Assembly: GCA_050246755.1 (NCBI GenBank)
Contig: JBFWVL010000005.1
Span: 160,001-224,000, forward strand
Reading direction: 5' to 3'
Source: Bacteriovoracia bacterium
GTDB lineage: Bacteria; Bdellovibrionota; UBA1018; CAIPTA01
DNA length: 64,000 nucleotides
The notes beneath the pieces were generated by a model, which made no database searches, was not told where the DNA came from, and saw only the letters and a program-made list of their open reading frames with translations. Positions 4,642-29,401 of the stretch are shown here, one piece after another. Within the stretch, counting starts at the first letter, position 1. The number at the start of each line of letters is the position of its first letter. A program made the translations under genes and the position numbers.

Positions 4642-4643
4642 TT

Positions 4644-5483: not shown

Positions 5484-5496
5484 ACGCGCCTCCAAA

Positions 5497-6448: not shown

Positions 6449-6498
6449 TGGGCCTCCATTTGGTCTTGTTTTACGCTCACGTTTAAGTCCTCTCTTGG

Positions 6499-7255: not shown

Positions 7256-7363
7256 AGGAATTCTCCTTCGTCGGAAGCCCGCTCGCCTTTGGTGGTGGAG
7301 AGACTTCTAAATTAGATTTTTTAGCTTCTGCACTTGGTAGTGGTGAGCAGAAGTCGTTTCATA

Positions 7364-8128: not shown

Positions 8129-9302
8129 TCGCACGCGACACCTCCAGGGAATCAATTTCTCCGCGAAGGACGCGCGCAAGGCGGGCCTCGTGGATCGTTT
8201 GGTGAACTTTGACGATTTTCTTTCCCTCTGCCGGTTCCATCGTTGCCCACTCAAGAACAGGAACACGCCCGCGAATCCCAGCGCAGCAGTTCGAGCATCC
8301 TTGCTCGAACCGCTCGCGGGCTCGCATTGCGGAAGGTCTCTTTCGGCGGTCGATGCGTTGGAGCCATGCAGCCGTATCCATTGAGGGCTCAATCGCGCAA
8401 TCTGCGCAAAGCCGCTGTTCCAAACGCTGCGCAATCGAGAGTCTCAGATTCGATTCCATCACGATACGTTCGACGCCGAGACCTGCGAGACGCTCGATAA
8501 CTTCGAGCGAACCGTTTGCGTGAAGTGTTGTGAAAACAAGATGCCCGGTTTCCGCCGCTTGAAAGCAAAGTTTTGCCGTTTCGGCATCTCGAACCTCGCC
8601 GACCAGGATCACATCGGGGTCCTGCCGTAGCACGGATCGCAGAGCATCGGCGAAGCTCATCTTGCGGCTGACCTGCACTTGATTGAGTCCTTCAATGCGG
8701 TATTCGATGGGATCTTCCAGCGTCACTATGTTGAAGCGCTTGGGGTTGATGGCTTTGAGGCACGCATAGAGAGTTCGCGATTTTCCACTTCCAGTCGGCC
8801 CGGAGACGACTACAACGCCATCTTCGAGTGAAATGGCTCGCCTAAGAGCGGCGATCTCGTTCTCCAGGAAGCCCAGGCCATCCAGCTCGAATGTCGCATC
8901 GAGGTTGAGCAAGCGCATGACGATCTTTTCTCCGAAGTGAGTAGGCAGAAGACTTACGCGTACATCCATTCGGAGACTTGGCATCGACGCGCGCCCATCT
9001 TGCGGGCGACCGCTAACGCCAATCGAGAGACCGAAAATTCGTTTGGCTTCTAAGATCAAGCTCTCCCTGTGCTCCAGTTCGACCTGCTTTTCAAGGATGA
9101 GATTTCCGTCCACGCGGAGTCTTAAATCAACTCCGCTCTCATGCGGCTCAATATGCACGTCACTCGCGCCGCGAGCCTTCGCCGCTTTCATCAGGTCGTG
9201 AAAGAGGCGCGCATAGGGACCGCTCTCCAAAAGCAACTGCTCGCTCGTTCGCCGTTTGGCGACGCTTACGCCGTGTTCCTTCTCAAGCATTATTTCCGTC
9301 AC
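8121..9302 (-). CDS. GspE/PilB-family secretion ATPase
   Basis: ASDVHIEP, RVDG, PQDGR, GPTGSGKS, TLEDPIEY, LRQDPDVILVGEVRD, TGHLVFTTLH, CxxC pairs. Confidence 0.9.
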   Translation of the reverse strand: MTEIMLEKEHGVSVAKRRTSEQLLLESGPYARLFHDLMKAAKARGASDVHIEPHESGVDLRLRVDGNLILEKQVELEHRESLILEAKRIFGLSIGVSGRPQDGRASMPSLRMDVRVSLLPTHFGEKIVMRLLNLDATFELDGLGFLENEIAALRRAISLEDGVVVVSGPTGSGKSRTLYACLKAINPKRFNIVTLEDPIEYRIEGLNQVQVSRKMSFADALRSVLRQDPDVILVGEVRDAETAKLCFQAAETGHLVFTTLHANGSLEVIERLAGLGVERIVMESNLRLSIAQRLEQRLCADCAIEPSMDTAAWLQRIDRRKRPSAMRARERFEQGCSNCCAGIRGRVPVLEWATMEPAEGKKIVKVHQTIHEARLARVLRGEIDSLEVSRAND

Positions 9303-12300: not shown

Positions 12301-12352
12301 CCATCACAGCAATCGAAAGCGGAACATCGTTTTGGGTCTTGGCAGTGTTCAA
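9299..12352 (-). CDS. Type IV coupling protein (TraD/VirD4-like) fused to C-terminal TraU-like domain
   Basis: N-terminal TMs, GSIGSGKT, IDPKG, PFW, IIDEYQ, ATQS. After about aa 700 a Cys-rich domain with GWGTFYPRYG, KWQMIYP, YLFVIW. Confidence 0.8.
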   Translation of the reverse strand: MNTAKTQNDVPLSIAVMAFVVVAAGYVYLNFLRFEPAKMLVVEELLQQHGAFWWWSVVAFACNLSFLGIFLKRSVGLERQGSKLQILQGKAERWAITRAEILAAIFSAVAYLGAKRSVVVDLAPFFLRLISANATSLAEVGLSANLAGAFYFVCRMILRLAGSLRFNLSDTHKLERPVQESGDMVLGTTPGALEAVEDKDREEWVTIPSRGVHGGVFISGSIGSGKTQGTILRYLRQLLAEPKGPPSILAIDPKGTFLREAENMIRRLGLGDRIVRLSLKGNVSFNPVFMENPLQDSKFVALAEMVRCAAVNFMGKSSDSPFWDVSSSHLIRNTIAYCSAVHGYFTLLDLYRTIVRAAKNNLADDLRKVLKEKNFTQEEAFNIGCAIEYFENEYSQLEDRVRTGIVATSTAFVNQFQEFAASRIFCPRKEHLSIHSMEDFVRSGKILLFDIQQPGLARSMGTFIKLHYEQAVLNLLSELKEKNMPVTSALIIDEYQDVVTCGGGGTLGDDSFMAKARESKPAVIVATQSLSSLMNTVGRERPALELVQNFRTRVACHSSDLETIKMFQALAGKEDVESQTHSFSETAQSAKLNLLAGGFDSKNSSLNEAVSRGTRREDILTGKEFSRLRTFEAFAQVFDGIETKFLKLYLKPDFLKAVNTKHETVLEMLRVTKKGGFVAWLKSFSRNSRAVAASLLLAGNVQAAGIPNVCSVASSPAFSSCLELAVGGCTCGYPPHPCALISYYVPQTFIEVWPEAKTSYFTAIPGAAAQLSKVTPMPFGAEADDDTQSFQARTIAVPFASMTFKLMPAGGTRNEKMCFDGMSEDFGSHWNTGKGDLTQPLFLAWSLSPKACLLAGAATSISGTPGSSYSSDSAMCGTPMPNIGVLPPSSHPACNGWGTFYPRYGTYTGPASMAGALMIASRIKSLSAEVLHTMPSGPDEKWQMIYPQSSSCFREGQNIGLLETIKNSRETMRLASGKLKGYLFVIWNRTTACKEMPTAVQAQAAALAIPAACAGAQ

Positions 12353-13858: not shown

Positions 13859-14040
13859 ACTCCTTGTCGGGCGAGCATCTGTTCGAGAACTCCGATTTCA
13901 AACGCAAGCTCACGGTTTGCAGCCAATTCCTTTACCGAGATCATTCCGTACCATTTGCGAAACTCGCGCTTCAGCACCGCCAAAGCAGATCGCAGACAGT
14001 AGTTAGAAAACCTTTTCGACTTGCTGTTCATAAGCGCACC

Positions 14041-14247
14041 TCAGAAATGACCGATAAGTCGCATCGCCTTGACACGATTTTGTTCGATATATTCCTGCTC
14101 AGGGGGCGCCGTAAAAATTGCGGTCAGGAGCCACCCAATCGGCCTCCAAACAGCAACGATCACCACTTTCACAGTCCTGGCTATCGCCTTCACTTCCAGG
14201 TACAGATTCGGTCGGTTCTGAACTACGAACGGTAGAATCTCTTGCAT
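14041..14247 (-). CDS. Small hypothetical protein
   Basis: RBS AAGGAG before ATG. 68 aa. Confidence 0.55.
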   Translation of the reverse strand: MQEILPFVVQNRPNLYLEVKAIARTVKVVIVAVWRPIGWLLTAIFTAPPEQEYIEQNRVKAMRLIGHF

Positions 14248-14266
14248 GACTATCTCCTTGAGTTTG

Positions 14267-14488
14267 TTAAACAGCGGCTCCGAGCGCGTATTCTTTCTCT
14301 CTGGGAAGAATCTCGCTCACGATTGATTTTGGTTTCACGGTCTTGAGAGCTGCGAGTGCCCAATCGGGAACAGCGCAGAGCTCTTCGGAGTGGGTCTCGT
14401 CATAGTTGCAGTTCACACAAAAGGCGTGAGTGCTGAATCTTTCCAAACCACGCTCACCACAACGGGGGCACATACAGAACTTGTTCAT
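14267..14488 (-). CDS. Small zinc-ribbon protein
   Basis: CPRCG...CVNCNY and RBS GAGGAG. Confidence 0.65.
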   Translation of the reverse strand: MNKFCMCPRCGERGLERFSTHAFCVNCNYDETHSEELCAVPDWALAALKTVKPKSIVSEILPREKEYALGAAV

Positions 14489-14544
14489 GGGAATCTCCTC
14501 TCTCTGAGAGGAAGGTTTCCAGTTGCTCCTCTCACAAATATAAA

Positions 14545-14561
14545 TTGCAAGAAGATGCCCG
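14545..14561 (-). promoter_or_regulatory. Possible sigma54 promoter for the small-gene/transfer region
   Basis: CGGGCATCTTCTTGCAA fits GG-N10-GC with a good TTGCA, but the -24 element is non-canonical. Confidence 0.35.
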
Positions 14562-14636
14562 AAATGGTCACAGCAGATAAATAGTGGGATTGCTGAAGGA
14601 ATCCGTAATCTCGGAAAAAACGAACTTTCTTAAATG

Positions 14637-14755
14637 GTCTATCTAAATAGACCCGAGTCTTTTGAAATAGACCCGCGCCAGATTTTCTGGCTCAGGTCTT
14701 CGCTGCTGCGATCTGGATAAAGGGATCTTAGAGAAATGAGTCTACAAAAACAGAC
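14637..14755. promoter_or_regulatory. Three GTCT-N8-AGAC palindromic sites (putative enhancer/UAS)
   Basis: 14637-14652 GTCTATCTAAATAGAC, 14657-14672 GTCTTTTGAAATAGAC, 14740-14755 GTCTACAAAAACAGAC. Confidence 0.65.
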
Positions 14756-14773
14756 TCGGGGTACGCGAACGCG

Positions 14774-15802
14774 TTAGCGTGCTGCGGAACTGAATGTCCT
14801 GCCGCCGAGAGACGCGGAAACTTCGCTTCCTCGAACTTGAACGGAGAAATCCGAATTGGATAGGGAGCATCCTTTGTCATTACTCAATAGCTTCGCAATG
14901 TAGAGGAAGCCTGTGGGCATCAGCGACGCGATTCGCCCTGAATTTAAAAGCTCCGAGACTAAAGACGCTTCACGGGCCGCGCCCTTCTCGAAAACAGCCG
15001 GAAGAGTCACGGGCAAGTAGTTGTCGTGCTGGTCTGAATAGGCATGAACCTGCGCTTCACCTACGAACTTAAAGAAATAGGGAACGTCACCTCGTCCGAG
15101 TTGCTCGACCTCGGAATCAAAAAGCGGAATTTCGGGTGGCTTCTGAAAAGCTAAGCGGTAGTGGATTGTATCTCTTAAGATATGGCGAATCGGAATCTTC
15201 TTGAACGTAGCTTGCTGGTCTTCGAACACGCGCTGTATCCCCGCAAGGTTCGAAGTGATGCACGAAAGTACGTCATAGTAACCGCGAAGAACAATCTCGA
15301 TTTGCTCAGAAGAAACAATCGCAAGGCTCAATATTGACGAAGCACCGCAGAGGTCGGCGTCGACTTCCTTAAACGGCAGTAAAAGCGTCTCATGCGGAAG
15401 CAGCAAGCGGGAAAGAACCACTTCAGCATCAACGACTTGAATGTGCGTCTCCGTCTTTACCACGTTATTTCTGTGCAAGTCGCGGATTCCGAAAACATAG
15501 CAGTATCCGAGGAGCACACCGAGACTGTACAAATGGGAGCCTGTACTTGGACCCATAGACGCGCGCACTTCCCGGGAAGACCCCTTGAAGTCAGCGCCCA
15601 TCTCTATTTCGAGATTGAAAATCGTCTGCGCAGGGGAAGCTGAGAACGTCGAATTTTTGAAGAAAAATGAGAGTGGACTGTCCTTACCAAAGAACAGCCA
15701 CTCCCAATAGATTGGGCGAGGTTTCTGAAAGATCATTTCAGAACCCCGTCCTATCTTTTGGACCGATTGTCCAAAATTATGGAAATCAGCCTCGAACTTC
15801 AT
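14774..15802 (-). CDS. Stand-alone LanM-type dehydratase domain (DUF4135)
   Basis: DFHNFG, KPR, DLHRNN, VDAE, LLP, RHILRDTIHY and GDVPYF match the LanM kinase/elimination motifs. No LanC cyclase domain. Confidence 0.85.
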   Translation of the reverse strand: MKFEADFHNFGQSVQKIGRGSEMIFQKPRPIYWEWLFFGKDSPLSFFFKNSTFSASPAQTIFNLEIEMGADFKGSSREVRASMGPSTGSHLYSLGVLLGYCYVFGIRDLHRNNVVKTETHIQVVDAEVVLSRLLLPHETLLLPFKEVDADLCGASSILSLAIVSSEQIEIVLRGYYDVLSCITSNLAGIQRVFEDQQATFKKIPIRHILRDTIHYRLAFQKPPEIPLFDSEVEQLGRGDVPYFFKFVGEAQVHAYSDQHDNYLPVTLPAVFEKGAAREASLVSELLNSGRIASLMPTGFLYIAKLLSNDKGCSLSNSDFSVQVRGSEVSASLGGRTFSSAAR

Positions 15803-15808
15803 TGGCAG

Positions 15809-15889
15809 TTAGTTTGAGCTACTGCCAGAGATGTAAGAGTCTGCTTCGGCCTCAAGTGCCGCCAGATTAATTACGATTTGCTCTTGCAT
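15809..15889 (-). CDS. Putative RiPP/autoinducer precursor peptide MQEQIVINLAALEAEADSYISGSSSN (26 aa; not in ORF track)
   Basis: AAGGAG RBS 5 nt before ATG. Fills the gap between the kinase stop and the DUF4135 start (6 nt after TAA). Ser-rich C-terminus. Confidence 0.8.
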   Translation of the reverse strand: MQEQIVINLAALEAEADSYISGSSSN

Positions 15890-15910
15890 GGTCTCTCCTT
15901 TCTTTCTTGT

Positions 15911-17704
15911 TTAGATAACACCCAGAAAGGAAGCCTTTTCAGGCTGCCCCCCACTAATAACCGGTACAATTCCTAAATAGTCTTTCGACAGCCAACGCAC
16001 TCCGAGGCGGTTTGTCCGACTTCGTACTTCAGCGTTTTCCGCCATGCCCGAAATTAAGATACTTTCAAAAGACAGGCCAAATCTCTCGATCAAATCGAGT
16101 CCGCTCGCGTCCTCATCCTTCAAATCACAATCGAACAGATAAAGTCTTTCGCCGAATTCTCCATGACCATTGGCTTCAATCCAATTGGTGAACGCCTCCA
16201 CTGAGGAGAGGTGAACTACTTCTGAAGGTATGGTTCCGAGCTCAGATAGCCTTCGCTGCCAGAGCGAATGAATCAGCGAGTCGTCATCTACAATGACAAC
16301 CTTCCCCTTGGCGGGAAGTTCAACGCAGTCCAGGAAGAGGTCTACTTTCCTAGAAAGTGGAATTCTCACCGCGACAGTTGTTCCTTCACCGATGGAAGAC
16401 TCAATTTGAATTGAGCCTCCAACCTTTTGCAGAACTTCTTTCGCATGGGTGAGCCCAATGCCGTTGCCGTGAGGTTTGCCAAAAGTAATCCTCTCGCTAA
16501 GAAGTTTCGAAAGAACTTCCTGCGGAATTCCTGTTCCATTGTCCTTAAAACGTATTTCCAAAGTCTCTTCGACTTTAGTTCCCGCTATGGTAATTCGTCC
16601 GCCTGTCCCAATGGCCTCGAAAGCATTGTCCAGGATCGTTGCGAACACCGTTTCGAGATCGCCGAGTGTCATGGCGCAAAATGAACCGAAGAACGCAGAT
16701 TCGTTTACGAACTCAACAGACGCTCGGAGGCTGGCGTACTGCGCCCGCTTTGAATCAGAAACGGTTTTGATTGTAGATAAAATGTGAATCGGCTCTTGGG
16801 TGGAAATCGATTCCGCCAAAACATTCGCGGCGGAGCTGCGATTCAACAAGCTGCCCGAAACGTCCTTTAAAGATGCAACGCAATCATTTAGGCTACGCTT
16901 GTCCTTCAACGAAAGATTCGGGATTTCATTGATTCTTAGCTGGAGAGTCGCAATCACGCCCTTAATAGCGTGTGCAACTTGCTCAGCCAGAGCCAAACGC
17001 AACTTATCCATTCCGACTGTTGCTAGATTCCTTTCCAGAACGACAATCTGCTTTAGTAACGTGGAAATCGAAGTAGTCAGCTCCTCAATCTCAAGAATTT
17101 GCGAGCGAGCGACTGGAGGCTCCTGTGCATGAGCAGAGTCAGGAAGCCCTTTTGCTACAAATTTGAGCCACTGAATTCGATTTTCGAGCGGTCCAATTAC
17201 CAGGTTGATGGTCATTCGTCTCATCCACCACATCAAAACCAGGAATACGCATCCAATGAACAGCGCAATCGAGGCAAGCAGTAGAACTCCGGATTGGATG
17301 AAACTCGCCAGGCTGACCTCTACGATGATCGAAAGCATCTGACCGGAGGGAAGGGGCGTTGTCTCTTCCACTCGCGAATGGAAAATTCCGAAGGGCTGCA
17401 ATTGCCCAGCATGGCTAATCAGCTTGCCGTCGAGTGAAATGTCCACGCGTAAATCCAAGTCTTGGGTCTCTTTCCACGTTTGTGTGAATCGCGCGATCTC
17501 CTTGTCGATCTCGTTCACGTTCTGGGAGTTCACGCCTGCTTCGGCCAACGCCGCAACATGATTGGTTACGAATCGCATTGCTTGGGTTTCTGTCTTCTTC
17601 AGCGAGTAAACGGAGTATGCGAGCAAAGCCAAGCCCGCAGCCCCAAGGCTCAGGGCCAGGCCGCGTTTTAGAATGCTGAGAATGACAGAGTAGATCGAGG
17701 TCAT
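15911..17704 (-). CDS. Hybrid sensor histidine kinase (2 TM, HATPase, C-terminal receiver)
   Basis: QVAHAIKG H-box, DNAFEA, DNGTG, GNGIGL. Receiver VDDD...D...SG...K. Confidence 0.9.
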   Translation of the reverse strand: MTSIYSVILSILKRGLALSLGAAGLALLAYSVYSLKKTETQAMRFVTNHVAALAEAGVNSQNVNEIDKEIARFTQTWKETQDLDLRVDISLDGKLISHAGQLQPFGIFHSRVEETTPLPSGQMLSIIVEVSLASFIQSGVLLLASIALFIGCVFLVLMWWMRRMTINLVIGPLENRIQWLKFVAKGLPDSAHAQEPPVARSQILEIEELTTSISTLLKQIVVLERNLATVGMDKLRLALAEQVAHAIKGVIATLQLRINEIPNLSLKDKRSLNDCVASLKDVSGSLLNRSSAANVLAESISTQEPIHILSTIKTVSDSKRAQYASLRASVEFVNESAFFGSFCAMTLGDLETVFATILDNAFEAIGTGGRITIAGTKVEETLEIRFKDNGTGIPQEVLSKLLSERITFGKPHGNGIGLTHAKEVLQKVGGSIQIESSIGEGTTVAVRIPLSRKVDLFLDCVELPAKGKVVIVDDDSLIHSLWQRRLSELGTIPSEVVHLSSVEAFTNWIEANGHGEFGERLYLFDCDLKDEDASGLDLIERFGLSFESILISGMAENAEVRSRTNRLGVRWLSKDYLGIVPVISGGQPEKASFLGVI

Positions 17705-19227
17705 TCAACGCTCATTTCGACGCTTTCAAGAGGGAGCGTGTGAATCCCAAGCGGATGCGACGGCACTGACTTCACCCGACGGCTCCAAAGCCCAGAGGCT
17801 TCAGATCCGAAAAAAAGCGGAATCACAGTATTGTGTGCCAGAATTTTCTTTTGGATGTCCTTGTAGGCGTTCGCTCTGTCTTCTGGATCAACAATTTGAA
17901 TCACGTTGAGCAGAGCACTATCGACAGCTTTATCATCGACGTAAAAGTAATTAGATTCGTATTTGCCTTTGAAATAACCAAGGACAGAAAAGCCATCGGG
18001 GTAGTCCATCGCTTTTCGTGCGATGATAGCTTGGGACTTTTTCCCGAAGAGGCGCTGGAGTTTCTCACCCTTTGACAGTGCATTGAGCTTCACGGTTACG
18101 CCAAGTAGCGCCCACTTCTCTTTTAGAAAAAGTGCCGTCTTCTCTTCCAAGTTTGATGCGCCCTCGTAGTCCATCTCAATGACGATTGGCTTCGACGGTT
18201 TTGCCGACTTCATCGACTTCAACTGCTCCACGTCGGTTGCACTAAGTTCTCCGGCTAGACCAAATGGAATCAGGCCAAATGCCGCGCGATAAGACTGATT
18301 GCCAAGACTGCGAATGATTTCTGCGGAATCTACGGACGAATAGAGCGCGCGCCGCACATCACTCGGGACCTTCTCAGGATTGAAAACTACAAAAACTTCT
18401 CCCGCAAGTTCAGTAGCGGCGGCGGCCCAGCCCTGCTTTTGGAGTTTGGCCTTCTCGATATCGTCGATCCGATAGTGGTCGAGTGTATCAATCTTTTCAG
18501 CCAGCGCGAGCTCAACGGGTTTCTCGGCGACCATCGAATACGAAATGGATTTAGGAGGCAATGGGCTGTCCAGAGCGTCAGGTCTCCATTTCTCGATGGT
18601 GAGATTGGTCTTTGTTACTTCGCCGACGAGTTTGTAAGGGCCGCTAAACGCTCCCTTTGCTGAAATCTCCGGATTCTGTTTGAAGTCGTCAATCGGAAGG
18701 ATTGAGCAATCGGCTACAGCGAGTTGCTTCAGGAAAATGGCCGAGGGCTCGCTCAGTCGGAATTCGACAGTTTGATCGTCGATTGGAACCACTCCGAATT
18801 TTCCGATCTCCTGCTGGGTCTTGAATGCCCTCGCACCAGAAATGTAGTCAATGTCAGCGGCCATCGACGCTCCGACAAGAAACATCCTAGCGAACGTCAT
18901 TTGGACATTCTTGGCGGTGATCGGTTTTCCATCGGAAAATGTGGCTTTGCGTATTTTGAAGCGGTACGTCTTGTGATCTTCCGATTCAGTCCACGATTCC
19001 GCCAGGTCAGCGCGGATATCTCCGGTCGTGTTGTATCGGAGAAGCCCACGGTACAACTGAGTAGCCACAGCCATCGAGTACGCGTCTTCCATTTTCTGCG
19101 GATCGAGATTCATCGCCACCGCCGGCAAATGAATTCGCAACCCTTCAATCGCAGGAGTTTTAGATTTTGTGCAACTGACCATCACAGCTCCTAAAAGGAT
19201 GAATGCAACACCTCTACAAACGTGCAT
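17701..19227 (-). CDS. Family-5 (OppA/DppA-like) solute-binding lipoprotein, no cognate permease
   Basis: Lipobox MVSC, LDP, LYRGLL, DLAESW, FSDGKPITA, SGPYKL. Confidence 0.9.
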   Translation of the reverse strand: MHVCRGVAFILLGAVMVSCTKSKTPAIEGLRIHLPAVAMNLDPQKMEDAYSMAVATQLYRGLLRYNTTGDIRADLAESWTESEDHKTYRFKIRKATFSDGKPITAKNVQMTFARMFLVGASMAADIDYISGARAFKTQQEIGKFGVVPIDDQTVEFRLSEPSAIFLKQLAVADCSILPIDDFKQNPEISAKGAFSGPYKLVGEVTKTNLTIEKWRPDALDSPLPPKSISYSMVAEKPVELALAEKIDTLDHYRIDDIEKAKLQKQGWAAAATELAGEVFVVFNPEKVPSDVRRALYSSVDSAEIIRSLGNQSYRAAFGLIPFGLAGELSATDVEQLKSMKSAKPSKPIVIEMDYEGASNLEEKTALFLKEKWALLGVTVKLNALSKGEKLQRLFGKKSQAIIARKAMDYPDGFSVLGYFKGKYESNYFYVDDKAVDSALLNVIQIVDPEDRANAYKDIQKKILAHNTVIPLFFGSEASGLWSRRVKSVPSHPLGIHTLPLESVEMSVE

Positions 19228-20392
19228 AACCAGCTCTTTGCTTCGCCTGAAATCTCGGCAATGTCATAAGGCCGAGTACGATCGCGCAAAAGGCTCCTCG
19301 CCACAGTCCATCGGCAAATACCGGGAGAACCTTGCTCCACGATCCCACCAGGAGTTCGCCGCTCGCAAGAATGACAACCATTTGAGTCATGCGCGCACTC
19401 GTGACTGCTCCCATCTTTTCCTGGGGTGTATCCATCTGAATGTGCGCTGAGATTCTATGAAGAATCAGCCAGTAAAACGTATCTTTGGAGAGAGCGAGAG
19501 CAACCGTTATCCAGCCCATGCCAGAAAAGTAGCCGAGCATGCCATAAGAGACCGCAAGCCCGATCCAAAGAGACGATGAACGCTCACTAAGGGAATTGGA
19601 CCGCTCGATATATCCGGCAAACCACACGGCGACTCCGTAGATACCAATTAGAAGTGCCATCCACTTTTGATCGTCGCCCACCAGACGAGCTGTGAAGGAG
19701 GTCGTTCCCATCATTGAAATGGCCAAGAGCAAATCTAAGACGGCAGCGCGACTATTGTATCTGTAGAAGTCGGCGAACTTCGCGAAGACACTCTCGGCAA
19801 ACGAAGCTGCTCGCTCAATCGTGGGCTCCGCAATTGGCAAGAAGAATACAATGATTCCATTTGCCGTGAATGTCGCGAGATCGAACCAGATCGCAGTTTC
19901 GAATGTCGAATACTTAATGATGGGCCACGCGCAAAGACCGGCGAAAAGTGTAGCTCCTTGAGTTGCCTTGTTGAACCAGATTGCGTGACTTGCATTCGAG
20001 GCATACGAAGTGTCTGCCAAGAGCTTCGTGATCTTCGCTTTGCTGCCTGCCTGGAACGAAACGATGGAAGTTTTGAGTAGACTGAAAGCAACGAGTAGCC
20101 AGTATCCGTGGTGGCCCTGTTCCCAGGCCCAAAGAATACCGAGTGAAGCCGCAGCCGCACCAAGTTCAGCTACAACGATGGTCAGCCGCGGAGAAATAGA
20201 ATCGGTAACATGCCCGAACAGGCCAGCAATGATTATGGGTACTAACCGCTGAAGACCTAGAATTAAACTGATGTGAAAAAGGTCAAAGCCCCCCTGAACC
20301 ATGAAGGCAACCAAGCAGATATTGAACGTGAAACTCCCAATGGAAGAAAGGAGCGTGCCCAAGTAAAACCAAGAGGCTAGGTTCATTTTCAT
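19214..20392 (-). CDS. MFS transporter (putative peptide exporter)
   Basis: About 12 hydrophobic segments, GHVTDSISPR motif A-like, PQEKMGAV. Confidence 0.85.
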   Translation of the reverse strand: MKMNLASWFYLGTLLSSIGSFTFNICLVAFMVQGGFDLFHISLILGLQRLVPIIIAGLFGHVTDSISPRLTIVVAELGAAAASLGILWAWEQGHHGYWLLVAFSLLKTSIVSFQAGSKAKITKLLADTSYASNASHAIWFNKATQGATLFAGLCAWPIIKYSTFETAIWFDLATFTANGIIVFFLPIAEPTIERAASFAESVFAKFADFYRYNSRAAVLDLLLAISMMGTTSFTARLVGDDQKWMALLIGIYGVAVWFAGYIERSNSLSERSSSLWIGLAVSYGMLGYFSGMGWITVALALSKDTFYWLILHRISAHIQMDTPQEKMGAVTSARMTQMVVILASGELLVGSWSKVLPVFADGLWRGAFCAIVLGLMTLPRFQAKQRAGYARL

Positions 20393-21870
20393 GATACTGC
20401 CTCCTCGGTCTCCGCAGACTCGCCGAGAAGACGTTTCTTTCTGTTGAAGTAAGCTGCCTTCGACATTCCGAGAAGCGTATAGAGGAATCTGTTATTCCCA
20501 TCGAAAAGCTTCAATCCGCTGGCTAGATACAAGCGTTCCATCCATTCGAGGGCCGACTGAAATTGCGCTGCGGAAACATCCTCCTTCGAGCGCGGAAGCA
20601 GTCCATCGGGAATGAAAATTAGCTGATCCGGCGAAACAGCATTCGGATCAAGGCCAAGGTGTTCAGGTTTCAACACGGGCCTGGAGGAACCCTTGATGTC
20701 AATGTAAGCGCGTTCAACCGCATTCTGAAGCTCTCGAATGTTCCCACGCCAAGGATATGCAGCGAGCACCTTGCGTGCGGGCACGGAAATCTTTCCCATT
20801 GGAAGTCGGCGCTTCAAAAACTCCTCGGCCAAATATTCGATGTCCTCTGGACGCTCTCTCAGCGCCGGGACGCGAAGGGAAATCTGATTGAGACGGTAGA
20901 AGAGGTCTTCTCTGAAACGTCCCTTTTTGATTTCGGCTTCCAGGTCTCGGTTTGTAGCCGCAATCACGCGCACATTCACGGTAACGGGCTTGATGGCACC
21001 CACTGGAGTAAAGGTTTGTTCTTGGAGAACTCGCAAAAGCTTAGCCTGCATTTCCAAGGGAACTTCACCGATCTCATCGAGAAAGATGTCACCACCGTCG
21101 GCAAGCTTGAATTGGCCCTGCTTCGCCTCTGATGCCCCGGTGAAGGCGCCTTTTGCGTGACCAAACAACTCACTCTCGAAAAGGTTCGCCGGGATCGCGG
21201 CGCAATTGACGGCAATGAATGGTCGCGAGGGATCGTCTTCTTGAAGGTTGAGATTCCTGGCTACTAGCTCTTTTCCGGTTCCGTTTTCTCCAGTGATAAG
21301 AACGTAGGAATGTGTTCCCTTCATTCTCAGGATGTCGCGACGAAGCTTCAAAGTAACTTCGGAAACGCCCAATATCTCGTATGAACGAACATGCGTTGCG
21401 AGCTTGGCCGTTAATTTCCGATTTTTCTCAAACTGCGTTTCGTTTTCCTGAATCAGAGTCCGATTTCGTCGAAGGATCGCAGCTTTCTCCAATACGTTTG
21501 CCACGCGAAATTTTAGGTTTGCTGCAAATTCATCCGAGCCTTTGATGACGAAATCGGCCGCGCCAGCCTTCATCGTTTCAATAATGGTTTCGGGCTGACT
21601 ATTTCCGGTCAACATCACGACAGGGAGCTCGGGCATTCGGCGCTTGAGGAGCTTCAAAAATTCCAGCCCTGAAATTTGAGGTAAACCAAAGTCGAGAAGA
21701 ACTAGATCGGGCCGGAACTGGCCGAGGACCCGCATCGCTTCAGTCGGCTCATGGACCGTCGATACCTCGTGCTCCTGGCGAAAAAGAGCTACAACGGACT
21801 CAGCGAAACGCTTGTCATCGTCTACGAGCAGAATCCTTAAAGCTGGTGTTCCTTCTGGGCTTTCCGGCAT
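20389..21870 (-). CDS. Sigma54-dependent response regulator (NtrC-like)
   Basis: Receiver domain, GENGTGKE, ESELFGH-GAFTGA, FLDEIGE, FREDLFYRLN, WRGNIREL, C-terminal HTH. Confidence 0.95.
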   Translation of the reverse strand: MPESPEGTPALRILLVDDDKRFAESVVALFRQEHEVSTVHEPTEAMRVLGQFRPDLVLLDFGLPQISGLEFLKLLKRRMPELPVVMLTGNSQPETIIETMKAGAADFVIKGSDEFAANLKFRVANVLEKAAILRRNRTLIQENETQFEKNRKLTAKLATHVRSYEILGVSEVTLKLRRDILRMKGTHSYVLITGENGTGKELVARNLNLQEDDPSRPFIAVNCAAIPANLFESELFGHAKGAFTGASEAKQGQFKLADGGDIFLDEIGEVPLEMQAKLLRVLQEQTFTPVGAIKPVTVNVRVIAATNRDLEAEIKKGRFREDLFYRLNQISLRVPALRERPEDIEYLAEEFLKRRLPMGKISVPARKVLAAYPWRGNIRELQNAVERAYIDIKGSSRPVLKPEHLGLDPNAVSPDQLIFIPDGLLPRSKEDVSAAQFQSALEWMERLYLASGLKLFDGNNRFLYTLLGMSKAAYFNRKKRLLGESAETEEAVS

Positions 21871-21883
21871 AAGCCGGAGACAT

Positions 21884-21900
21884 AGCTAGGTTCATGCCAA
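21884..21900 (-). promoter_or_regulatory. Sigma54 (-24/-12) promoter of cassette 1
   Basis: TTGGCATGAACCTAGCT = TGGCA, GG-N10-GC, just upstream of the regulator gene. Confidence 0.65.
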
Positions 21901-21985
21901 AACGGAGGGCTTTACTCAACTACCTAAAATTGCAGGAGAATGGCTCTGGCAGCGGCTCTCGGGTGATTTCGAGGTATCTAAAAGA

Positions 21986-22001
21986 GTCTATATAGATAGA
22001 C
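21986..22001. promoter_or_regulatory. GTCT-N8-AGAC palindrome (putative UAS) about 90 bp upstream of the sigma54 promoter
   Basis: GTCTATATAGATAGAC followed by CCG, as in the sites at 14637 and 14657. Confidence 0.65.
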
Positions 22002-22090
22002 CCGATATGTAGAACTTTCACGAAACTGACCAATCGGTAGCAGATTGACCCCATATACAAGAACCGTTTCCCAAACAAATTCAGTAGGTC

Positions 22091-22504
22091 CTAACGGAAT
22101 ATGGCGAAGCTCGCTATCAGCTTGAGCAGATCAGCACATGCTCGGCCGCCGATCACAGCTAGGAAAATTTCAGCCCAACGGGGAAAGCGGAAGACCGGGA
22201 ATTCCAATTTCCAAGAATTGAATCCGTACCCACTTCTACGGTGGCCGGAAGCGATTACAGCTTGGGCGTCGATCATGACGAGTTGAGCTTGGTGCATCTT
22301 CTCGGGACCGTAGTGTTGAAAGAGCCGATATAGCTCGCGGCAGGGAATTTCGGACGGCTTTTTTTCAATGTCTAGGAGTCTCGCTTCGGAGATTCCGAGG
22401 GAAGCCGCAACTTGTCCCGCACTTTCTCTTCGCTGCGTTCGTGCGCTGTAAAGAAAGCGACCCAGCTTCCGATTCATCGTAGCCCTTACTAATTCTCTGT
22501 CCAT
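22091..22504 (-). CDS. XRE-like HTH protein with hydrophobic C-terminus
   Basis: LGRFLYSARTQRRES..VAASLGIS...IEK. ATG 22504 follows AAGGAGG. Confidence 0.65.
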   Translation of the reverse strand: MDRELVRATMNRKLGRFLYSARTQRRESAGQVAASLGISEARLLDIEKKPSEIPCRELYRLFQHYGPEKMHQAQLVMIDAQAVIASGHRRSGYGFNSWKLEFPVFRFPRWAEIFLAVIGGRACADLLKLIASFAIFR

Positions 22505-22528
22505 CGTGCCTCCTTCAGCGATCACGCC

Positions 22529-22592
22529 GCATACGATCGTATGCACATTAGTTCAGAAAACCATCGAAAATCAAGTGCATACGATCATATGC
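22529..22592. promoter_or_regulatory. Pair of 16-bp palindromic operators between divergent XRE genes
   Basis: GCATACGATCGTATGC (22529-22544, perfect) and GCATACGATCATATGC (22577-22592). Confidence 0.7.
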
Positions 22593-22605
22593 GCGATTTT
22601 CGGGG

Positions 22606-22854
22606 GTGCAGGTGGCAGAACGTGATTCATTAACCAGTGGCGAAAAAAAGCTACTGAAAGTATTTGGGACCCGCGTCAGAGCTATCAGGGAGCAACAGAA
22701 GAAGTCGGTGTACGACGTTACTGGTGACGACATGCCAATAAAGACTCGGCAACACTGGCAGATGATAGAGGCCGGGAAGAAGAACATTCAGCTCACAACA
22801 ATTTCAAAAATTGCTGAATCGCTGGAGATTTCTTCCGGTGAATTATTTAAGTAG
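22606..22854 (+). CDS. XRE-family transcriptional regulator
   Basis: FGTRVRAIRE...IEAGKKNIQLTTISKIAESLEIS. Confidence 0.85.
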   Translation: MQVAERDSLTSGEKKLLKVFGTRVRAIREQQKKSVYDVTGDDMPIKTRQHWQMIEAGKKNIQLTTISKIAESLEISSGELFK

Positions 22855-22882
22855 GGAACCTGGGCCTCGGAAGAGATGGTTG

Positions 22883-24040
22883 TTAGGGCAGGCTCTTCCC
22901 AAGGCGTTCGCACGCGGCGACCAATTCATTGGGAGTGGACTCGCTAGAGTACTTTACAATCCATTCACGGCGCTCATCCACCAGTTTTGACAGCTCACGG
23001 ATTTGGCTTTGTACATCTGGAACCGTTAGCCGATAGAATCCATGACTCTCACCTAAGACCTCCGCGATCACCTGTTCCATCTGAATTGCAAAACGAATTA
23101 AGTGCAGAGGCTCCTGGTGGTTTGCCAACTCCAAAATTATCTTCTGATTTGAACTTTTCTTTCTCGAAAACAGCTTTGTCAGAAATCCGCGTTCGCTCGG
23201 GTTTGTCATCGTCTTCAAATTCGATTCCATATTGAGGAACCATCGGCAACGAAGCTCCTTGAGCTGATGCTTCATCGCAAAGAGGTGATTCTTGTATTCA
23301 CCGCTATCTGGAGCCGCAAGCCTCTCCTTTAAGCTCTCGTAGATCGCCTCCAACTGCGCACTCAAATCGTTGCCCAGGAGCTCAATCTGCAAATCTACTT
23401 TCTTATCAATTCTCCCGATTTTTTTTGCATTGTCGTACCCCGAAATGATGTGAGCAGTTCCTACAATCAGTGCGCCGATATTCGCAATACGCGAGACGGC
23501 GCTTGGATCGATCTGCTTGGCCTGGGAAATAAACCTGCGACCGTTCTTGTCTACGGCGATTAGTAACTTTTCTCCGTTCTTCGTTACTAACTGAACTGCC
23601 GATTCCTGTTCAAGGAGTTGAGCCGTTGCACTTGGAAACCTCGCCAAGATGAGGTCACGCGCCTGCGCCGAATTGACAACTTCCAGGCCAACAATGAGAG
23701 CATCGGAGGCGCCGTCCGTTAAATGGGAATTCACCTCGCTCAATAGGCGGCCAGAAATTTGCTCACCAAATCTTGCAAAGTGAATCGCATCGCGAAAGCT
23801 AATGCCGGAAGTCGCACGGCTGTATGACCGAGCGAAAGAGCCTTCATCTGCGGAAGTAATCTCCGTCCGACGAGAACTTCTGGCGCGATAGCGTTTCCAA
23901 AATGCGATTGAAAGGGCGGCGCATACGGCGATCGCCGCCAACATCCAAATCATCTGTGCGCTCACACTCTGTATCAAGTTCGATCCCCATGTCTTATCGT
24001 CATTCAGTTGGTCAGACGATTTCAAACGACCCAAATGCAA
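22883..24040 (-). CDS. Hypothetical membrane-anchored protein (start may be later, e.g. 23953)
   Basis: N-terminal TM and helical body. Third gene of the DUF2779-SNF2 operon. Confidence 0.7.
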   Translation of the reverse strand: MHLGRLKSSDQLNDDKTWGSNLIQSVSAQMIWMLAAIAVCAALSIAFWKRYRARSSRRTEITSADEGSFARSYSRATSGISFRDAIHFARFGEQISGRLLSEVNSHLTDGASDALIVGLEVVNSAQARDLILARFPSATAQLLEQESAVQLVTKNGEKLLIAVDKNGRRFISQAKQIDPSAVSRIANIGALIVGTAHIISGYDNAKKIGRIDKKVDLQIELLGNDLSAQLEAIYESLKERLAAPDSGEYKNHLFAMKHQLKELRCRWFLNMESNLKTMTNPSERGFLTKLFSRKKSSNQKIILELANHQEPLHLIRFAIQMEQVIAEVLGESHGFYRLTVPDVQSQIRELSKLVDERREWIVKYSSESTPNELVAACERLGKSLP

Positions 24041-26987
24041 TTAGTTCCGGCTCTGAAGCAATGCTAGTTTTACTTTCCAGCGTAGCTATAAGCTTTTTCT
24101 CGCGGTCTCGGGAGTTCCTGCCAACTTCCGCCAGCTCTTCGTCGATCTTAAGTTGTTTGTCCTTCAGTTTGGAAATCTCAGAATTGATTTCGCTCTGAGC
24201 TTTGAGGGGCAATTTCCGCCGTTCCTTCTTCAGCTCCTCAATGCGCTTTTGGAGGTCGTCTTTCTCATATCTCTTCTGTCTTTCAAGGTCTTCAAAGAGG
24301 TGTTCGATTTTTTCCAATTCTTCATGATACAGCTCCTCCGTGTTTCCCATGAGGATTGCCTTTTGCCGTTCGACTTCCGTTTTTAGAAAATCACGGCAAT
24401 GGGTTCCAGTTGGAGGTGAACATGGTTTTTGGTCCATCTCGCTGCTGACGGTAATAAGCTTCGTAGCAAGTTCGATGTCGAGAGCCTGTTGCCCAATTAG
24501 AAAAATAGGAACTAGTACATCGAAAGACTCGATCCCGTTAATTCTGACTCGATGGAGTTCAAAAGATCCCTTCTGGCCGACGTATGGCTCTAGTAGGGAA
24601 ATCCGGTGACGGCCCGACATATTGAATTTGACGTGACCACTTAACACCGACTTCGGCACTAGGTCTCGAAATCCATTGTGTCCCGAGTGGATAAGCTGAC
24701 AATCGTCGCCACTTGTCTTTACAAATTTGTATAGAACTTCGGCTTCAAGCCCGCGGAAATTTTCTTTCAGCTTCAATTCCTGTCCGTCGTACTGCCTGGT
24801 GGACTCAGGCACTATGGAGAGCACACAGTCGCGAACCAGTGCCTGTTTTGCGTCTATGGCGTCCTTCGCCTTCTGGTGTACGTCTTTCAATCTCTTTTGA
24901 ACGTCTTCGTCAAATTCAGCCAGTAACTTTTCGCGGGCACCTCTTAACCGTTCATCGACGGCCTCGCGATTGTTCTCCATCATTTCGGCGAATTTTCGGT
25001 CGATCTCTTCGGGCGTCCGGCACGAAAGGTAAATCCCAAGGATTTCCTTTTCCACATCTGTACCAGATTGAATTGCCCCTAAGACTTCGTCTGATACACC
25101 GAATGCACCTTCGAAAAGATGGAATTTCTCGTCCAGCAATTCAAGAACACGTCTGTCTGCGTGGTTTCTTTTATTTACGAAATTCACAACCACCACGTCT
25201 AGTTTCTGTCCGTAACGATGACAGCGCCCGATTCGTTGCTCAATACGTTGTGGGTTCCAGGGAAGATCGTAGTTAATAATCAAGTTGCAGAATTGTAGAT
25301 TCAGTCCCTCGGCGCCGGCTTCAGTAGTAAGGAAGACTTTCTTGCTGTCCCTAAATTCATTCACGAGTCTTCGGCGGCTCTCTGCATCGCCGACGCTACC
25401 ATTGAAGAGGACAATATCGTTTTCAAGCGTAAGTCCCATTTGCTGAAGGACGTTGATGACATACTGCTGAGTCGTTTTGAATTCCGTAAAAATGACGGCT
25501 TTTTCCGGCCATCCTTCCGCTCTAGCTTTGCGGAACTGCTCTTCCAAGGCTTTCTTCAGCGCGTCGCCTTTGGTGTTCTCCCGAATCTTTTTCGTTAGGC
25601 AGATAAATTGTAGAACTTGTCTGGCTTCGATTAGAACCGTGTCATGAGACGGTCGTTGCGCAGAGAGATCGTCTCCCAAAGCTTCTTCAAGGTCATCTTC
25701 GTCATAGTTTTCGGAGATTTCCTCCTCTTCGCCGATCAAGTCTTCTAGTTCCGAAGGCGCGACCGATTCTCGCAGACCTTCGTAAGATTTCGGCCGCACG
25801 TTTTTGTAGAGGAGTTTCTCGAAGTCTTCGAGTTCGAGAGAACGCTTACCGTTATCAAGGGTCAGAGTTTTGCTTATTTCAGCCATGAGCTTCTTGTGAA
25901 GCTCACGGTCGTCGGCCTGAACTGCATAGAGAACGAACCGTTTGTAGATTCCGAGGAGACTATTCTTTAGAGCAAATGAAGAACTCGCCAGAAGTTTGCA
26001 GTAGATGAGCTTTAGCAGGTGGGAGGCCATCGGAGGAATACCCAGAATATCATCCCGAGTGAGGTAAGCCTCAAAATCCTTCCGCAGTTCTTCCTCTTCG
26101 TCGTCCGGATCAAATTCCAGCGTTATTGCGTGCCTCTGGGTGTATTTGATGAAGTCGCTGACATTTTTGCGAAGTTCTCTATGAAAGAACTTCTTCATTC
26201 GATACTTGAGTTCCGCAAGGCGCTCCTCGCGATCCTCGTCAGGAATTTTTTGAAAGGTGCGTTGAAAGCTCTCTTGAGTGCCGAGAATCGACTCCTCTAT
26301 GAAGGAGGTCAATCCATAGAGTTCCATCAAGTTGTTTTGCATCGGCGTCGCGGTCAAGAGGACTTTCTTGAAGGGCCGAATCGTTTCTCGAATTAGCTTT
26401 GCTCTCTGAGCCTGCTTTTTACCGGGCCGCCATACGTTTCTGAGCTTGTGCGCTTCATCGACCACGATCAAATCCCAAGCAATGCTCGCCAATTTTCCCG
26501 AATACTTATTAAAGAAGTGCTCATTCGTGATAACGATTTTTTCTTTCGCGTCGAGCGGAGATGGCTGTCCATTCTTCGTCGTTGCCTTGATTGACTGCGT
26601 GTCAATGATCCGGCTTTCCAGGCCAAAGAGATTCTGCAACTCATCTTGCCACTGATGGCGCAGTGATTTTGGCGCCACGATCAGGAATGAGCGTCTACCT
26701 TCTGCCCATAGCTGGCTGAGGACGAGTCCTGTTTCAATGGTTTTTCCAAGACCGACTTCATCAGCGAGAATAACTCCGCCAGCCAATGGATTTCGAAACG
26801 CAAAGGTAGCTGCCTCGACTTGGTGTGGGTTTAGATCGACTTTCGCTTCGATAATTGCTTGGTCCGTGGACTCACGGTCCCATTTTGGTTTTCGAAGCGT
26901 GAGGAGATTCATGTAGTAGAAAATCTGAAGTTCCGAGAGCCGATTATAGGCGGCAGCGCTGTCGCTCTTTGAATCTACGTTCCTCAC
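24012..26987 (-). CDS. SNF2-family helicase with C-terminal coiled coil
   Basis: LNPHQ, LADEVGLGKT, DEAH, TATP, EGLNLQ, YDLPWNPQRIEQRIGRCHRYGQ. GTG start right after the upstream stop is estimated. Confidence 0.9.
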   Translation of the reverse strand: MRNVDSKSDSAAAYNRLSELQIFYYMNLLTLRKPKWDRESTDQAIIEAKVDLNPHQVEAATFAFRNPLAGGVILADEVGLGKTIETGLVLSQLWAEGRRSFLIVAPKSLRHQWQDELQNLFGLESRIIDTQSIKATTKNGQPSPLDAKEKIVITNEHFFNKYSGKLASIAWDLIVVDEAHKLRNVWRPGKKQAQRAKLIRETIRPFKKVLLTATPMQNNLMELYGLTSFIEESILGTQESFQRTFQKIPDEDREERLAELKYRMKKFFHRELRKNVSDFIKYTQRHAITLEFDPDDEEEELRKDFEAYLTRDDILGIPPMASHLLKLIYCKLLASSSFALKNSLLGIYKRFVLYAVQADDRELHKKLMAEISKTLTLDNGKRSLELEDFEKLLYKNVRPKSYEGLRESVAPSELEDLIGEEEEISENYDEDDLEEALGDDLSAQRPSHDTVLIEARQVLQFICLTKKIRENTKGDALKKALEEQFRKARAEGWPEKAVIFTEFKTTQQYVINVLQQMGLTLENDIVLFNGSVGDAESRRRLVNEFRDSKKVFLTTEAGAEGLNLQFCNLIINYDLPWNPQRIEQRIGRCHRYGQKLDVVVVNFVNKRNHADRRVLELLDEKFHLFEGAFGVSDEVLGAIQSGTDVEKEILGIYLSCRTPEEIDRKFAEMMENNREAVDERLRGAREKLLAEFDEDVQKRLKDVHQKAKDAIDAKQALVRDCVLSIVPESTRQYDGQELKLKENFRGLEAEVLYKFVKTSGDDCQLIHSGHNGFRDLVPKSVLSGHVKFNMSGRHRISLLEPYVGQKGSFELHRVRINGIESFDVLVPIFLIGQQALDIELATKLITVSSEMDQKPCSPPTGTHCRDFLKTEVERQKAILMGNTEELYHEELEKIEHLFEDLERQKRYEKDDLQKRIEELKKERRKLPLKAQSEINSEISKLKDKQLKIDEELAEVGRNSRDREKKLIATLESKTSIASEPELIAFGSFEIV

Positions 26988-26988
26988 G

Positions 26989-28998: not shown

Positions 28999-29182
28999 CC
29001 GGTTAGTCCGCCTTAGCTGTAAGCCTTTGAATTCACTTAAGCTTATCGGTAGTGCCACGCTAAAGGTTTAGGCCCTACGACGCGTGCAATTTCATCAAAC
29101 GCTGTAGAACGAGGTATTACGCGTTGACACTGTTTCCGTGCGCGTTATACACGCCATCACTAACGAACTGGACGAAGGACAG

Positions 29183-29392
29183 ATGTCGAGGACAAGGGCG
29201 ATCCGATTTTCAAATGATGAGGAGAAGCAGATTGAGGAGTTCCTAGAGAACAACTCGTTTCTGGATTTCTCCTCTCTCGCACGCTTGGCGATCCTGACCT
29301 TCATCAAAGAGCCGAAGATAACCATTCGGCCTAATAAGGAATCGCGCTCGGCGCCTGAACGGAGACAGAGACATGACCAACCAGAACAGTAA
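29183..29392 (+). CDS. Small ribbon-helix-helix-like regulator
   Basis: TRAIRF beta strand followed by two helices (FSSLARLAI). RBS GAAGGA. Confidence 0.6.
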   Translation: MSRTRAIRFSNDEEKQIEEFLENNSFLDFSSLARLAILTFIKEPKITIRPNKESRSAPERRQRHDQPEQ

Positions 29393-29401
29393 GGTATTGC
29401 G

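Follow-up and report, generated by a model that had tools for sequence, protein, structure and literature searches.

A conserved cassette with a candidate precursor peptide and a DUF4135 enzyme on a probable integrative and conjugative element of Bdellovibrionota

Gene content and conservation of the cassette

A window of 64,000 nucleotides (the whole stretch of DNA that was analysed; positions 160,001 to 224,000 of contig JBFWVL010000005.1, assembly GCA_050246755.1) from a Bacteriovoracia bacterium of the phylum Bdellovibrionota carries a cassette of six genes, which sits in a probable integrative and conjugative element (ICE) of about 50 kb. The genes encode a sigma54 response regulator (REG), a membrane protein resembling the major facilitator superfamily (MFS), a family-5 solute-binding lipoprotein (SBP), a putative hybrid histidine kinase (HK), a candidate precursor peptide, and a stand-alone DUF4135 protein (Table 1). 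The initial annotation, which was made from the DNA letters alone, described six co-oriented genes of which the first four overlap, and the coordinates of the open reading frames (ORFs) confirm this on the minus strand at 14774-21900. The overlaps amount to 4 nt (REG/MFS), 14 nt (MFS/SBP) and 4 nt (SBP/HK); the HK gene is followed after 21 nt by the peptide ORF, and this after 6 nt by the DUF4135 gene. That annotation interpreted the cassette as a quorum-sensing system based on a peptide that is made by ribosomes and modified after translation (RiPP). The comparative predictions which it named were borne out; however, the probable output, marked by a palindrome in front of the conjugation genes, was missed.

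One genome per species was scanned for the enzyme, which returned 31 DUF4135 loci (L numbers below). The order REG-MFS-SBP-HK-peptide-DUF4135, which had been expected to recur elsewhere, is found in 16 loci, and four more that are cut by contig ends are consistent with it (20/31). The same parts are rearranged in five loci; L024, L025 and L026 are divergent, and L027 and L028 read DUF-SBP-HK. The remaining loci include one degenerate (L006), two without partner genes (L029 and L032) and three uninformative ones (L012, L030 and L031); L012 comes from an isolate in which DUF4135 and T4SS genes are present and a contig end truncates the cassette. Two members of the set, L007 and L008, are near-identical. 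A DUF4135 homologue is present in 32 of the 401 sampled genomes of the phylum and in 27 of the 204 genera; the other seven genomes of the window's own family contain none. This patchy distribution suits a mobile trait.

The predicted tie between the binding protein and DUF4135 also held. The SBP subfamily (E<=1e-60) occurs in 15/401 genomes, and 14 of the 15 are DUF4135-positive, with the two genes usually within ~4 kb. The protein of G223 was considered as an SBP orthologue without DUF4135 and rejected; it is a paralogue of 27% identity with no partners nearby. Distant DUF4135 homologues (22-31% identity) were located in 16 loci, one of which (L056) lies on the same contig as L027, and in ten of the 16 an SBP and/or an HK gene adjoins the enzyme gene. 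In genome G228 the order is DUF-SBP-MFS-HK-MFS-SBP-HK. The linkage of enzyme, SBP and kinase thus survives deep divergence and changes of order, since it is kept in both the distant and the rearranged loci.

Five genomes contain two cassettes each (L002/L021, L006/L009, L007/L014, L008/L018 and L015/L023). Four of the five pairs differ in the peptide tail, and also in the palindrome type described below where both types are known; L007 and L014 share both. At L006 (9391-20453) only a kinase fragment, the peptide and DUF4135 are left of the cassette. Neighbouring genes encode an AAA+/M41-protease-like protein of 1293 aa, a protein with ankyrin repeats and a reverse transcriptase, and the region looks like a defence island. 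At L009 (2898-5564), in a metagenome-assembled genome from long reads, the MFS gene is in two pieces and the SBP gene in three, for which frameshifts or assembly errors are possible.

The candidate precursor peptide and the DUF4135 enzyme

A conserved short ORF directly upstream of DUF4135 had been predicted, and was observed. An ORF of 23-28 codons with the same pattern is present in 24 of the 28 loci examined, which gives 25 peptides with that of the window; L012 and L029 have no such ORF among those 28. Each of the 25 ORFs is preceded by a Shine-Dalgarno sequence, and 2-24 nt separate its end from DUF4135. The peptides follow the pattern M-x-E-V/I-x-x-I-N/D-L-x-x-L-E-A-E-A-E-S-F/Y-x-A/G-G-x-S-S-x(1-3). 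Ser at alignment column 25 is found in 22 of 23 sequences, and the tail past Gly differs between loci. The variant peptide of L027 and L028 ends in HTTDF, with Thr-Thr in place of the tail Ser. Comparison of the 23 distinct DNA sequences gave a nonsynonymous difference (pN) of 0.38 and a synonymous difference (pS) of 0.79, with pN<pS in 250 of 253 pairs; Leu10 is encoded by five different codons. A similar peptide is also kept in the distant DUF4135 loci. The short ORF is a real gene under purifying selection.

The generic layout of a RiPP precursor is present here: a short gene, a conserved leader, a variable core and an adjoining homologue of a modifying enzyme. A lanthipeptide core would combine Ser/Thr with Cys for (methyl)lanthionine. 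All 25 peptides have Ser/Thr; however, Cys occurs in only four of them (L013, L020, L021 and L025).

The Pfam match to DUF4135 covers residues 92-132 only of the enzyme. A profile of 22 homologues was compared with all PDB sequences, and retrieved the LanM-type synthetases CylM (E 3.2e-6) and LicM2 (E 1.3e-4). Residues D108, H110, N113 and D125 align to D347, H349, N352 and D364 of CylM, and R206 and T212 align to R506 and T512; the N-terminal D6-x-H8...K27-P-R segment aligns weakly with the GDSH...YKPR segment of LicM2. According to passages of the CylM structural study, K274, D347, H349, N352 and D364 serve phosphorylation, and D252, H254, R506 and T512 serve elimination of the phosphate (PMC4550811). 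The nine equivalent positions are invariant in the 22 homologues. They are also kept in 20 distant homologues, except for H110 in three and for one outlier; the four elimination-residue equivalents (D6, H8, R206 and T212) are kept in 18-20 of the 20.

Homology to LanM begins at the P-loop, only 6 residues from the N-terminus, and the CylM alignment starts at about residue 252. Relative to CylM 5-279, the protein has neither the capping helices nor the N-lobe ahead of the P-loop. The same passages give the domain limits of CylM, and report that the capping helices hold the KA domain (PMC4550811). The enzyme also has no cyclase; the protein ends at residue 342, and DUF4135 is the sole Pfam match. 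LANC_like had no match in the genome, although the control genomes gave none either. This agrees with the initial annotation, in which LanC is missing. Its term LanM-type fits the homologous kinase/lyase core with its nine residues; however, the protein is not a LanM, but a minimal core of ~340 aa only. A true LanM or lanthipeptide cluster was rejected on the missing cyclase and the rarity of Cys. We conclude from these alignments that the enzyme probably represents a minimal LanM-type kinase/lyase core. Most likely it would dehydrate the tail Ser, with stable phospho-Ser as the main chemical alternative. A word-indexed search found 189 homologues of similar length, the few named ones from Bdellovibrionota, and an exhaustive profile search returned 273 cluster representatives (50% identity, E<=1e-30); the best 150 of these 273 have 151-423 aa.

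Partner proteins, promoters and the mobile element

The distant solved relatives nearest to the binding protein are DppE, AgaA and OppA, and 14 of 20 orthologue N-termini show a lipobox Cys. The SBP_bac_5 fold is present; however, the cognate permease/ATPase operon is absent from the window. BPD_transp_1 permeases have 14 matches in the genome, none of them in the window, and the nearest one on this contig is ~145 kb away, which agrees with the earlier designation as a solo binding protein. MFS_1 was detected in 11 of 15 orthologues of the MFS protein (best E 4.5e-13), and the MFS profile found no solved relative. The HK has two transmembrane helices around a periplasmic domain of ~100 aa, followed by a DHp-like His245, the ATPase domain and a receiver-like C-terminal domain. 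Sixteen orthologues all share H245, N360 (N box), DxGxG (G1), GxGxG (G2), D473/D474, D525 and K574.

The REG sequence contains the receiver Asp D60 (in LVLLDFGLP), a Walker A motif, the GAFTGA loop and a C-terminal helix-turn-helix (HTH). The features of an NtrC-type enhancer-binding protein are all present: a receiver domain, an AAA+ domain with GAFTGA, the HTH, an rpoN gene (single copy in the genome), a -24/-12 promoter and an upstream palindrome. The NCBIfam LuxO model scored 283 bits, which is far under its cut-off of 800 bits and similar to other NtrC-family models.

The sigma54-type promoter that had been noticed ahead of the cassette (P1) is, as a single site, no better than chance, as 47 matches with <=2 mismatches were counted in the window against 52.9 expected. 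However, the site is conserved, and TGGCAY-N5-TNGC precedes REG in 15/15 distinct loci; a chance site at P1 was therefore rejected. In the window, the -12 GC of P1 is only 14 nt ahead of the ATG of REG, which would make the mRNA nearly leaderless, and the annotated start of REG is uncertain. In other loci, a Shine-Dalgarno sequence and the REG ATG lie 25-45 nt downstream of the P1-type site. A TTCAA-N4-TTR motif is found ~30 nt before the -24 element of P1 in most loci, and resembles an IHF site. A sigma70 scan of 14000-22300 gave 0 promoter-like sites.

A palindrome or near-palindrome of 16-18 bp lies ~105 nt upstream of the TGGCA of P1 in 15/15 distinct loci, and is the putative REG binding site. 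GTCTAT-N4-ATAGAC is the type in the window and in L002; types elsewhere are AGTCTC-N6-GAGACT, AGTTCG-N6-CGAACT, TGTCGCC-N4-GGCGACA, AGTCCA-N6-TGGACT and TGTAATC-N4-GATTACA. At <=1 mismatch the palindrome of P1 has 3 matches in the window against 0.01 expected, and GGTCTAT-N4-ATAGAC occurs in two places only in the 3.55 Mb genome, namely upstream of P1 and downstream of DUF4135 (three copies, given as 120-250 nt downstream). The palindrome type groups with the sequence of the C-terminal recognition helix of REG across loci; for example, the AGTTCG half-site of L018 was predicted from this helix and afterwards located. Conserved sigma54 architecture together with a regulator-type palindrome fits the auto-regulation proposed in the initial annotation. 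Terminator-like matches at 14738-14757 and 21984-22003 were rejected, being the palindromes themselves.

Ten loci, including the window, have 2-3 copies of their own palindrome after DUF4135, with the last two 20-21 nt apart; L023 has a weak copy only. In 10/10 loci TTGCA follows 100-104 nt past the last palindrome, at the promoter-like site P2. The first gene past P2 encodes a four-Cys zinc-ribbon protein with homologues at this position in at least eight loci (L002, L009, L011, L012, L015, L016, L020 and L023); in L017 and L022 this place is taken by a DksA/TraR-type zinc finger. Neither the zinc-ribbon protein nor the small ORFs around the cassette matched Pfam, NCBIfam or PHROGs. A small hairpin can form after the conserved TTGCA...GGTGAGAGG at 14476-14538 (minus strand) and at the equivalents in L002, L009, L015, L016, L022 and L023, with a stem that differs by locus. 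A conserved 5' untranslated stem-loop after P2 was dropped as a candidate; RNAalifold gave no consensus hairpin for this 5' region, and the z-scores of single-sequence folds were only -0.1 to -2.4.

Conjugation genes on the same strand lie farther downstream and are the probable regulated output of the cassette, as judged from the shared palindrome. Same-strand genes of a type IV secretion system (T4SS) follow the cassette in the window and in 11 of the 24 loci having at least 3 kb of downstream DNA. They include the type IV coupling protein (T4CP), VirB11, TraE and TraK in the window, L002 and L016, and pilin, TraL, VirB4 and VirB9-type proteins in others. The ICE setting put forward in the initial annotation is upheld by the T4CP and T4SS genes, the relaxase, the integrase, cargo of the ArdA, AbiE and restriction-modification types, and a tRNA-Met gene. 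To the left of the window (L046, G000:C5:140001-160000) lie TraG_N, a MobA/VirD2 relaxase and a tyrosine integrase. The upstream cargo (22000-41622) comprises an SNF2 helicase, DUF2779, a radical SAM protein, an Eco57I-type methylase, SRAP, a CoiA-like nuclease, ArdA and AbiEi/AbiEii. The tRNA-Met gene is at 41546-41622, where the GC content rises. An att-type search that compared the tRNA-Met flank with the integrase flank gave no repeat of at least 14 nt.

A second, distantly related module occupies 59994-64000 and continues in L045 (G000:C5:219001-234000). It is preceded by a perfect TGGCACGCTCCTTGC (59994-60008), upstream of which lie palindromes of the GGCCAG-N4-CTGGCC type, and its proteins share only 44%, 30% and 26% identity with those of the cassette.

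Table 1. Features of the cassette, its control elements and the surrounding genes in the window
Feature	Position	Strand	Basis or remark
REG, sigma54 response regulator, 493 aa	20389-21870	-	Response_reg 3.2e-23, Sigma54_activat 1.2e-65, AAA_lid (Pfam)
Divergent MFS-like membrane protein	19214-20392	-	MFS_1 20.9 bits (Pfam)
SBP_bac_5 family-5 (peptide/opine/nickel type) solute-binding lipoprotein	17701-19227	-	Pfam E 1.7e-35
HK, putative hybrid histidine kinase	15911-17704	-	HATPase_c E 1.8e-17 (Pfam)
26-codon ORF, candidate precursor peptide MQEQIVINLAALEAEADSYISGSSSN	15809-15889	-	Shine-Dalgarno GAAAGGAG
Stand-alone DUF4135 protein, 342 aa	14774-15802	-	Pfam E 7.7e-13
P1, sigma54-type promoter TGGCATgaaccTAGC	21885-21899	-	TGGCAY-N5-TNGC conserved before REG
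GTCTAT-N4-ATAGAC palindrome, putative REG binding site (upstream activating sequence) for P1	21986-22001	-	Genome rarity and conserved position
Three copies of the P1 palindrome after DUF4135	14637-14755	-	14740-14755 (2 mismatches), 14657-14672 (1 mismatch), 14637-14652 (exact)
P2, promoter-like site cGGgcatcttcTTGCAa, GG-N10-GC	14545-14561	-	TTGCA after last palindrome
Four-Cys zinc-ribbon protein, 73 aa, first gene past P2	14267-14488	-	Homologues at same position
Conjugation genes downstream of the cassette, probable regulated output	422-12352	-	Family matches to window proteins
T4CP	9299-12352	-	
VirB11-like ATPase	8121-9302	-	
TraE	5497-6480	-	
TraK	4644-5546	-	
TrbI	3400-4641	-	
TraC	422-2956	-	
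Second-module sigma54 response regulator	60042-61460		Followed by a 375-aa membrane protein, an SBP_bac_5 protein and a 564-aa kinase

Proposed circuit, rival explanations and known systems

Taken together, these data suggest that a self-produced, modified peptide might control both the element and its conjugation, because precursor and enzyme are tied to a binding protein and a kinase, the operon appears to be an auto-regulated sigma54 operon, and an element-specific operator is shared with the region before the transfer genes. In the proposed circuit, the conserved leader (I-N/D-L-x-x-L-E-A-E-A-E-S-F/Y) of the 26-aa precursor is followed by a short variable tail (x-S-S-x1-3), and the precursor would be modified by the adjoining minimal LanM-type enzyme. 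The tail Ser would be phosphorylated with ATP, and the phosphate most likely eliminated to leave dehydroalanine. A tail fragment of ~4-6 residues may then be freed by a protease and exported by the MFS protein. Outside the inner membrane it would be bound by the family-5 lipoprotein, which might dock on the ~100-aa periplasmic domain of the HK, and the hybrid kinase would set the phosphorylation state of the NtrC-type regulator. The regulator is predicted to act from the palindrome ~105 nt upstream of P1, with auto-induction of all six genes, and from the 2-3 palindrome copies before P2, with expression of the zinc-ribbon gene and the conjugative transfer genes. The chances that a self-made dehydrated or phosphorylated peptide, sensed through binding protein, kinase and regulator, drives the cassette and the transfer genes of the ICE are judged about even.

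Several observations weigh against this circuit. The second module is followed by no peptide and no DUF4135, so the sensor layout of REG, membrane protein, SBP and HK needs no self-made peptide. Neither a leader protease nor a peptide exporter of known type is encoded in the cassette. The MFS_1 score of the window protein is under the Pfam cut-off, which makes for a weak assignment, and its role as a peptide exporter would be a guess. Pfam at E<=0.01 reports only HATPase_c in the HK, and neither HisKA nor Response_reg; no Hpt protein was found accompanying this hybrid kinase. The mapping of D6, H8 and K27 to the LanM P-loop depends on the weak LicM2 segment and on motif spacing. The co-variation of palindrome and HTH is confounded by relatedness, and hence supportive, not proof. 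On the output side, the DNA examined in L007, L010, L014 and L020 has no second palindrome cluster, and no T4SS genes follow the cassette in 13 of the 24 loci. The sigma54-dependence of P2 is also doubtful, because the -24 GG at canonical spacing is seen in the window and L002 only (2/10 loci).

The sign of the response is a separate question, and activation by the signal is somewhat favoured over inhibition. The precursor and all other genes stand behind an activator-dependent promoter, which is the usual layout of positive auto-induction (as at agr P2) and speaks against the opposite sign. With that sign, the peptide would shift the kinase to phosphatase mode or lower the level of phosphorylated REG, and the element would repress transfer when its neighbours carry it. 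This is a tentative possibility, and there are precedents for it. Transfer is repressed by ICEBs1 PhrI and by pCF10 iCF10 when neighbours already carry the element. The combination of SBP, hybrid kinase and sigma54 regulator matches LuxP/LuxQ/LuxO, in which the ligand turns the kinase off. The plasmid-encoded iCF10 is described as an inhibitor of pCF10 transfer (PMC5552905). The difference in tail and palindrome between most co-resident cassettes (not L007/L014) would also fit self-recognition.

The chemistry and the source of the ligand might likewise differ from the proposed circuit. The enzyme may only phosphorylate, with a phospho-Ser peptide as the signal. The kinase residues are invariant, a mature lantibiotic retaining phospho-Thr has been reported (PMC10235938), and the enzyme has neither the capping helices, which hold the KA domain in CylM (PMC4550811), nor the greater part of the LanM N-lobe; however, the conservation of the four elimination residues, described above, would be hard to explain, and phosphorylation alone is considered unlikely. 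It is quite unlikely that SBP, HK and REG sense an external peptide or small molecule (from prey, recipient or nutrient), with the MFS protein as a possible importer and the peptide/DUF4135 pair as an output with another role. The paralogous module without peptide or enzyme (60042-64000+), the 14 SBP_bac_5 genes of the genome and the lack of export or cleavage machinery of known type would agree with such a sensor; however, the SBP subfamily would not be expected to accompany DUF4135 in nearly all its genomes, or SBP and HK to adjoin the enzyme gene through changes of order and down to 22-31% identity, as enzyme-product/receptor pairs would. Very improbable is a lanthipeptide-like antimicrobial or toxin, with the sensor serving producer regulation or immunity. 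Lantibiotic operons often carry two-component regulators. Outside this cassette family, DUF4135 has been described in class II lanthipeptide synthetases (PMC10676384). Against this stand the absence of a cyclase domain or gene from the searches, the rarity of Cys, the variable tail of just 4-6 residues, and the absence from the cassette of an ABC/C39 exporter or immunity gene; the only C39 match in the genome is on another contig.

Firmicutes are the textbook case of quorum sensing by peptides and of conjugation under pheromone control, whereas the signals known from diderm bacteria are mainly small molecules. If the proposed circuit is true, an ICE-borne system in Bdellovibrionota would bring signalling by peptides into a diderm phylum, and would open a way to study when mobile elements of predatory bacteria are transferred. 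A bolder version, which we consider doubtful though possible, would have the cassette represent both a new class of RiPP and the earliest known case of a peptide pheromone in a diderm phylum: the ~340-aa cyclase-free enzyme would convert the C-terminal Ser(-Ser) of the 26-aa precursor to dehydroalanine and so give an electrophilic pheromone of 4-6 residues, and each ICE would have its own tail ('pherotype'), matched lipoprotein receptor and regulator/palindrome, so that ICEs sharing one predatory host could control their conjugation orthogonally by a relay of SBP, hybrid kinase and sigma54 regulator. The palindrome/regulator and tail/receptor pairs could provide a natural set of orthogonal signalling channels. 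The enzyme appears to be the smallest natural LanM kinase/lyase and would define a minimal catalytic core; it could be a compact tool for placing dehydroalanine or phospho-Ser near a peptide C-terminus, and its family is large, as the 273 clusters indicate. A full-text literature search, which did not extend to paper supplements, found no description of the cassette or of stand-alone DUF4135 proteins of ~340 aa. The published network analysis of DUF4135 left out proteins <500 aa (PMC10676384), a length filter that would have removed the ~340-aa family.

Comparison with the LanM enzymes CylM (5DZT) and LicM2 (6ST5) showed the same DxH P-loop, catalytic Lys, D-x-H-x-x-N motif, Mg-binding Asp and R...T pair with identical spacing, and in both cases the candidate substrate is a ribosomal Ser/Thr peptide encoded beside the enzyme. 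However, the cassette enzyme has 342 aa against ~990 aa, without capping helices, N-lobe or LanC-like cyclase, and its peptides are mostly without Cys and have one or two target Ser. AioR, the regulator of the AioX/AioS/AioR system, is sigma54-dependent. That kinase-regulator pathway also begins with a periplasmic binding protein (PMC7565993 and PMC5908839). It differs in that its ligand is an environmental oxyanion, its binding protein belongs to another family, and no signal-synthesis gene is included.

Among the signalling systems, LuxP/LuxQ/LuxU/LuxO is similar in that a signal made by the cell itself reaches a hybrid kinase by way of a periplasmic binding protein, and is passed on from there to an NtrC-type sigma54 activator. 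It differs in that the signal here would be a ribosomal peptide and not AI-2, the binding protein is of family 5 and not of LuxP type, there is no Hpt protein among the genes found, and the candidate targets are transfer genes and not Qrr small RNAs. The agr (AgrD/AgrB/AgrC/AgrA) and ComX/ComQ/ComP/ComA systems likewise combine a modified ribosomal peptide, a maturase, a kinase and a regulator in one auto-induced operon; however, they have other enzyme chemistry, direct sensing by the kinase without a binding protein, monoderm hosts and sigma70-type activators. The systems of pCF10 (cCF10/iCF10/PrgZ/PrgX) and ICEBs1 (RapI-PhrI) share the mobile element, the short peptide, the OppA-like protein and the coupling to transfer genes (PMC5552905, in part). 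Their peptides are unmodified, imported and bound by cytoplasmic receptors, whereas sensing by a membrane kinase, a diderm host and a modifying enzyme are proposed here. The proposed circuit would work like LuxPQ-LuxO, agr/ComX and pCF10/ICEBs1, and is a member of none of them.

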